A stretch of 64,000 nt of DNA, from positions 544,001 to 608,000 of the forward strand of contig CBDDIJ010000002.1 of the NCBI GenBank assembly GCA_965228855.1, written 5' to 3'. Below, piece after piece: positions 41,082 through 41,306 of this stretch (the first letter of the stretch is position 1; each line of letters opens with the position of its first letter). The stretch comes from Candidatus Obscuribacterales bacterium. GTDB taxonomy: Bacteria > Cyanobacteriota > Vampirovibrionia > Obscuribacterales > Obscuribacteraceae. The notes below the pieces were generated by a model, which was given only the letters and a program-made list of their open reading frames with translations, had not been told where the DNA came from and ran no database searches. The position numbers and the translations under genes were made by a program.

Positions 41082-41306
41082 TTACTTCTTCTTATTATCA
41101 TCCTTGTTTTTCACGGTTCCACACAGATCGCTCGTCTCAAACGGATCATCACCGTCGTCACCATCGTCACCGTCGTCACCGTCATCGCCGTCATCGCCGT
41201 CATCTTTACAAGTTGCGCCACTCGGGCAAAGCTGATTTATGATGGTTGTGATCGATGGAATCTCAATAGTGATGCTGTTGACGGAGGAGTCCACATCCAA
41301 GTCAAA
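41082..41306 (-). other. LanA-like precursor peptide forming the RHS C-terminal cargo (74 aa)
   Basis: Directly after DPLGL: FDLDVDSSVNSITIEIPS-ITTIINQLCPSGATCK-(DDG)6-DDPFETSDLCGTVKNKDDNKKK. Confidence 0.75.

Follow-up and report, generated by a model that had tools for sequence, protein, structure and literature searches.

The window, a stretch of 64,000 nucleotides from the genome of a Candidatus Obscuribacterales bacterium (G000), carries on its minus strand a gene for a large Rhs/YD-repeat protein, followed by a hairpin-bearing spacer and by genes for a LanC cyclase and a LanB dehydratase (Table 1). Translation of 41082-41306 yields 74 residues and then a stop codon, and reproduces what a preliminary description of this DNA had listed: the residue numbering, three cysteines (residues 27, 33 and 62) with Ser/Thr upstream (T20/T21, S29 and T58/S59, respectively) and a tract of six Asp-Asp-Gly units, (DDG)6. 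The residues are real, but they do not make up a free-standing peptide. They lack a start codon and form the in-frame end of an open reading frame spanning 41082-46685, that is, the C-terminal tail of a 1822-aa Rhs/YD protein. Calling the peptide a cargo was apt yet undersold it; the fusion to an Rhs cage is the finding itself.

Table 1. Features of the Rhs-lanC-lanB locus, in window coordinates.
Feature	Position	Strand	Basis and remarks
74-aa cargo peptide, predicted lanthipeptide precursor	41082..41306	-	Translation; disordered in the structure model
FDLDV leader box	41292..41306	-	First five residues past the predicted cut; sequence
First predicted ring cluster, T20/T21-C27 and S29-C33	41208..41249	-	Sequence; rings inferred
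Second predicted ring site, T58/S59-C62	41121..41135	-	Sequence; inferred
(DDG)6 acidic tandem spacer, not conserved	41151..41204	-	Residues 35-52, then DD
Rhs/YD-repeat protein, 1822 aa	41082..46550	-	Likely start ATG 46550, from RBS and homolog alignment
Transglutaminase-like N-terminal domain	45960..46343	-	PF01841, E 1.7e-5; 5-sequence alignment
DUF6531 domain, cage start	44397..44573	-	PF20148, E 7.8e-10
Rhs-associated core (aspartyl autoprotease), ends PLNKTDPLGL	41307..41573	-	TIGR03696, 74.6 bits
48-aa single-YD-repeat gene	46630..46776	-	Found ahead of Rhs genes of this family, with or without Lan genes at the locus
Two genes without Pfam match (186 aa, lipoprotein-like; 172 aa, membrane-like)	47404..48491	-	Upstream of related Rhs genes
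13-bp GC-rich hairpin and U tail, terminator/stabiliser-like	41019..41048	-	Between Rhs stop and lanC; z -4.2
LanC cyclase, 431 aa	39697..40992	-	PF05147, E 5e-47; GxxHG, WCYG and CHG motifs intact
LanB dehydratase, 1010 aa, full length	36648..39680	-	PF04738 and PF14028
S41 peptidase, nisin-resistance-protein-related	35653..36609	+	Convergent with lanB; only PDB match 4Y68, E 2e-17

The TIGR03696 match of the Rhs protein ends one residue before FDLD, and both autoprotease aspartates are invariant across 41 aligned sequences. According to the accessible part of PMC8765631, RhsA is cleaved behind the W/L/F that closes PxxxxDPxG-W/L/F. By the same motif, the autoprotease here is predicted to cut after the final Leu of PLNKTDPLGL, and its product would start exactly at the Phe of FDLD. 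Modelling of the last 1199 aa produced a beta-cocoon (mean pLDDT 81.6) with a disordered tail, and the best structural matches of this model are T6SS Rhs cores. No signal peptide or PAAR was seen in the 1822-aa protein. Searches of the 95%-complete genome for the delivery components TssC, VgrG, sheath, PAAR and SpvB, in which PF05943, PF04717, PF04984 and PF05488 served as the T6SS-type profiles, returned no match. The transglutaminase-like domain has Ser or Ala in 5/5 aligned homologs at what we take to be the position of the catalytic Cys, while the presumed catalytic His and Asp are kept; the domain may serve this Rhs family in export or targeting. Homologs of the upstream 186-aa/172-aa gene pair are found at the G109, G028, G069 and G075 loci described below. 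Elsewhere in the window (50971-51736), a small gene pair resembles by eye a RelB/RelE-type toxin-antitoxin module.

With I19 of the tail taken as +1, F1 lies at -18 and P17 at -2, a placement that had been read as the nisin register. The reading does not extend to other tails: counted from the Phe/Tyr of the box, the -2 position is not Pro in any of the four inspected (P0015, P0123, P0089 and that of G075), and the cluster has no LanP. The net charge is -16 for the 74-aa peptide and -12 for the core, and the nisin/gallidermin lipid II motif SxxxCTP(G/S)C is absent from the tail, which bears out the view that the peptide is unlike cationic lipid II binders. A calcium-binding role suggested for the acidic linker is disfavored by the lack of any DxDxDG match in the tail and by the occurrence of DDG repeats in only one of 212 homologous Rhs tails. 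Comparison of the six 9-nt DDG units revealed 22 pairwise differences, all of them at third codon positions and none at positions 1-2. Such synonymous-only variation suggests that the tract is indeed selected at the protein level, as had been proposed, though as a spacer rather than as a defined calcium site. The tract is the sole (DDG)3+ element in a six-frame scan of the genome, and 28 of the 212 tails contain other exact tandem repeats; most likely it is a lineage-specific flexible spacer. Public contigs from three runs, two of which may be source DNA, span the Rhs-tail junction and the DDG tract with no differences.

Scans of the tail with Pfam, NCBIfam and the ESM Atlas gave no match. Two checks proposed with the preliminary description were run. 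The tail has no match to the FDLD-type profile NF038155, and among 209 tails FDLDV takes fourth place, at 2.0 bits, when scored with a profile built from 44 free-standing leaders chosen by the FDLD pattern. A comparison of DDG copy number among the 212 tails found the repeats in this tail only. Ser/Thr upstream of 3/3 Cys is reached in 19% of shuffles of the tail. Taken alone, this tail is weak evidence and not significant; the case rests on recurrence.

The Rhs stop codon is separated from lanC by 89 nt that hold no small immunity gene. A hairpin between the precursor gene and the enzymes is a feature of nisin-type clusters, and the equivalent spacers of G075, G109 and G028 fold at z scores of -5.95, -7.5 and -2.1, respectively; promoter and terminator scan counts showed no excess over shuffles. 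LanC matches MadC and NisC, and its zinc ligands and catalytic His (H224, C297, C342 and H343) are invariant in 7 sequences. LanB has both the glutamylation and the elimination domain, and its R781, R822 and H965 align with NisB R786, R826 and H961, which we take to be catalytic. LanB R138/R154 align with R161/R182 of MadB, residues that contact the FDLD box in the accessible part of PMC12241602. As far as found, the genome holds one LanB and one LanC, and a six-frame scan of it detected no other credible FDLD precursor. No LanT, LanP or LanI/FEG gene occurs among the neighboring ORFs of the cluster. With LanC and LanB directly downstream, and with related tails bearing fuller FDLD leaders, the assignment of the tail as a class I (FDLD-type) precursor with Ser/Thr-Cys sites is supported.

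The S41 peptidase shares the TASS(G/A)E motif with SaNSR (PDB 4Y68) and adjoins lanB; unlike SaNSR, it has no membrane anchor when read from its likely start. Peptidases of this kind occur in 21/107 genomes of the order, mostly away from lanB. They adjoin lanB at five of the 15 LanB loci and at L080, and these adjacent copies do not form a clade, so that the peptidase is not established as a fixed part of the system. It may trim the leader or give resistance, and its membership in the system is uncertain.

We then asked whether Rhs tails fit the enzymes that follow them. In the four tails adjacent to Lan genes, each of the 24 Cys is preceded by a Ser/Thr at a distance of 3-7 residues, compared with a mean of 16.0 fitting Cys in shuffles of these tails (0/5000 reach 24) and with 148/291 Cys among 49 further Cys-rich tails; both the -3 to -7 window and the tail groups were picked after viewing the tails, kin are not independent and the Lan-adjacent loci came into the sample via the LanB search. 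Neighbors were assessed for 69 of 72 Rhs ends, those with at least 700 nt downstream. Twenty-one of these ends have at least 3 Cys, and the full Ser/Thr-Cys pattern appears in four, exactly the ones that precede lanC/lanB, and in 0/17 of the other Cys-rich tails. The conservation anticipated for related tails was thus borne out for the Ser/Thr-Cys spacing (24/24) but not for Pro(-2) (0/4), and FDLD is missing from two of the four Lan-adjacent tails (G109 and G028); YDID is present in one.

The 212 Rhs tails collected from homologs are largely unrelated to one another, as befits a hypervariable C-terminal cargo. Within 50 residues of the cut, FD[LI][DE] is found in 6/212 tails versus a shuffle mean of 0.2; all six have at least 3 Cys, and one of them (P0212) is not lanthipeptide-looking. 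The leader profile ranks P0123 (21.1 bits), P0015 (13.8 bits) and P0089 (8.7 bits) first to third, and further Rhs tails bear DDMFDLD-type leaders. P0015 and P0123 belong to a common 90% cluster and have the same leader and different cores, a combination that resembles RiPP precursors. The leader box lies 8-44 residues past the cut in other tails and 0 residues past it here. Pro- or Pro/Gly-rich tracts follow the Cys clusters in G075 and G096.

The names of homologs assign the organism to Candidatus Obscuribacterales/Melainabacteria. A survey of 107 genomes of the order Obscuribacterales identified LanB in 15, LanC in 9 and this Rhs family in 67. In G000, G075 and G109 an Rhs gene immediately precedes lanC-lanB, and in G028 one immediately precedes lanB only, so that four of the 15 LanB-bearing genomes, in 4 genera, have the arrangement. 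No LanC was found in the G028 genome, where Rhs and then lanB occupy L010:6893-15660, and the G028 tail is possibly a dehydration-only cargo. G069 and G072 nearly duplicate G075, with a contig end or an insertion cutting the locus. A 7.3-kb contig of G010 carries lanB, a short lanC and S41; at the G088 and G032 loci lanB stands alone, and G015 and G063 are fragments. Several loci are organized differently. In G096 (L028:11918-13035), the order is an Rhs-core remnant, a precursor gene of its own with an FDIQ leader and a Pro-Gly tract, and lanC-lanB; this may be a state before fusion or after fission. In G119 (L035:8950-10148), lanC-lanB come after two free-standing FDLD precursors, of which one has CxxTC repeats, and NF038155 reaches 19.2 bits there (cut-off 20). 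At locus L217 the Rhs gene is divergently oriented and the precursor is free. A second LanB clade, in G067 (L033:3314-12080) and G068 (L202), is accompanied by a C39 ABC transporter and a PpiC-like protein, and no precursor was seen near lanB at these two loci.

In a FastTree phylogeny of 67 LanB rows, the four Rhs-adjacent LanBs group with those of G072, G096 and G010 in one clade of SH-100 with long tips (~1 substitution per site). The Rhs scaffolds of the four loci, in a tree likewise made with FastTree, do not form one group and require 3 changes. The shared LanB clade argues that the four cases represent one old association and not four independent origins, and scattered Rhs scaffolds are expected if a tail and its downstream genes move together between scaffolds. 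Of the 72 metagenome LanB loci among the matches listed, many of them short-flanked, a single one shows the arrangement, and its DNA is that of G075; among the 80 listed genome LanC loci, again many short-flanked, the two with the arrangement are G075 and G109 DNA. No Rhs-fused precursor outside this order was present among those listed loci. A single-sequence LanB scan of genome contigs recovered no relative, and in a protein search with the Rhs-tail junction only, 0/49 candidates scored.

The in-frame fusion, the cleavage motif, the gene order, the intact enzyme motifs and the recurrence with the Ser/Thr-Cys pattern are features of the DNA itself. We consider it probable that the locus encodes a class I lanthipeptide precursor caged by Rhs in the toxin slot, with lanC/lanB in the immunity-gene slot. 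In this pathway, LanB would bind the FDLDV box and dehydrate Ser/Thr with glutamyl-tRNA, and LanC would close up to three thioether rings at C27, C33 and C62. Modification would probably take place in the producer cytoplasm prior to cage closure, because a closed cocoon could not admit enzymes of 431 aa and 1010 aa. In the accessible parts of the respective texts, S. bongori Rhs needs co-expression of its immunity protein (10.1101/2024.02.26.582050) and teneurin-like chimeras are toxic (PMC13018210), which argues that Rhs tails are reachable in the producer cytoplasm. Because FDLD directly adjoins the cut site here, LanB would have to bind it either in competition with folding of the protease plug or once the peptide has been released. 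Cleavage by the Rhs autoprotease is predicted to free the peptide at the Phe of FDLD, and the peptide would keep its leader unless a further protease removes it. More speculatively, the cage may export the modified peptide in place of a protein toxin and stand in for the missing LanT exporter, and the peptide may act against competing cells, antagonism being the likeliest role because the slot is polymorphic. A broader proposal of a hybrid between polymorphic toxin and RiPP pathway, that Rhs cages in Obscuribacterales hold swappable lanthipeptides that are stapled by LanB/LanC, sealed in, cut by the autoprotease and delivered by a non-T6SS route, is tentative and falls a little short of probable.

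Several other explanations were weighed against this caged-precursor reading. The Rhs protein could be a self-cleaving pro-protein without any delivery function, whose free tail is modified by LanB/LanC and then exported by an unlinked transporter or active inside the cell. FDLD becomes a free N-terminus only once cut, and the genome has no detected T6SS/eCIS and contains an unlinked 911-aa C39-peptidase ORF; the free FDIQ precursor beside the Rhs-core remnant of G096 points the same way. We nevertheless judge this unlikely, given an intact 1748-aa cage kept in four deep lineages and the 8-44 residues between cut and box in other tails, which would make the leader reachable uncut. Still less probable is a chance capture, in which recombination placed a lanA gene in the Rhs tail slot, giving a neutral or decaying fusion, while LanB/LanC act on another substrate or on nothing. 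Such an event would accord with the free swapping of Rhs tails, the minimal leader in G000 and the truncations or insertion sequences in related clusters (G068, G069, G072 and G010). It is hard to reconcile with tails in four genera that have no overall sequence likeness and yet match the Ser/Thr-Cys pattern at 24/24 Cys, with intact enzyme motifs and no other precursor candidate in the genome, or with DDG codons that vary only synonymously. The model first put forward, in which an acidic, calcium-binding linker connects two ring clusters and cleavage follows the nisin register, draws on F at -18, P at -2, the net charge of -16 and the synonymous-only variation in the tract; the missing DxDxDG, the uniqueness of the tract among 212 tails, the lack of Pro(-2) in all four related tails inspected and the absence of LanP make it very improbable. 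Least credible of all, the unmodified tail would be a toxin that LanB/LanC neutralize in the producer and its kin, which fits the position of lanC/lanB (that of immunity genes, in the accessible portion of the Rhs literature) and the 89-nt spacer devoid of a small immunity gene but not the dedicated FDLD box (a biosynthetic signal, in the accessible portion of the lanthipeptide literature) or the free precursors with the same box adjoining related enzymes, and we know of no case of LanB/LanC detoxifying a peptide.

The caged-precursor system is predicted from its genes to operate like a class I lanthipeptide pathway while being built like an Rhs toxin, with defining features of each missing. 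It shares an intact LanB and LanC, a candidate FDLD box, Ser/Thr upstream of each Cys and a hairpin between precursor and enzymes with class I FDLD/FxLD systems (nisin NisBC; maddinglicin MadBC, PDB 9G04 and 8BYK; NF038155). Unlike these, its precursor is the last 74 aa of a 1822-aa protein, with an acidic core and no lipid II motif, and the cluster has no LanT, LanP or LanI/FEG genes. Borosins and the BURP-domain burpitides also have a core peptide inside a much larger protein, which is the modifying enzyme; here, in contrast, the peptide is joined to a self-cleaving cage, and the enzymes have genes of their own. With Rhs toxins (P. protegens RhsA, 7Q97; S. bongori Rhs, 8QJC; Vibrio RhsP, 8H8B) the protein has in common a YD beta-cocoon, the PxxxxDPxG-L autoprotease and a hypervariable cargo. 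The cargo is, however, a short Cys/Ser/Thr peptide instead of an enzyme, modifying enzymes stand in the place of the immunity gene, no PAAR/VgrG/T6SS was found and the N-terminus resembles a transglutaminase. Bacterial teneurin-like proteins (PMC13018210, PDB 9IFO) likewise have a caged polymorphic C-terminus and no obvious delivery machine, but in the accessible part of that text they often have signal peptides, enzyme or membrane toxins and immunity genes, and peptide-modifying enzymes are not mentioned.

All parts of the system are already known, and it is the coupling of an Rhs cage with lanthipeptide enzymes that appears new. We found no description of it in the searchable literature, a coverage that takes in few subscription journals, and the accessible main texts of the lanthipeptide mining papers PMC7268733 and PMC11251773 do not contain the word Rhs. 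The precursor here is not a short free-standing ORF of the 30-120 aa used in PMC7268733, as far as its accessible text describes; mining limited in this way misses such precursors, and precursor-less clusters should therefore be rechecked for tails on large neighboring proteins. If the reading is true, Rhs cages carry enzymatically modified peptides besides protein toxins, and lanthipeptides can be packaged and released through a protein cage, without an exporter dedicated to them. Ring formation would leave a mass mark, by which the window of access to the Rhs tail before cage closure becomes testable.

Other Cys-rich Rhs tails were noted. A second class, with CxCxC, a Gly-rich stretch and CxxxC (L006:9982-18406 and L007:1964-7980, G000:C5; L288-L294), precedes a family of genes for 226-245 aa proteins that have no Pfam match and an Atlas likeness to DUF2092/LolA-like proteins. 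About six tandem copies are present in the genome of the window, and the tails are possibly disulfide-type cargo with immunity or carrier genes. Finally, P0074, P0016, P0055, P0005, P0053 and P0156 are Rhs tails with Cys-every-fourth or Cys-Pro repeat cores, and are candidates for further modified cargoes.
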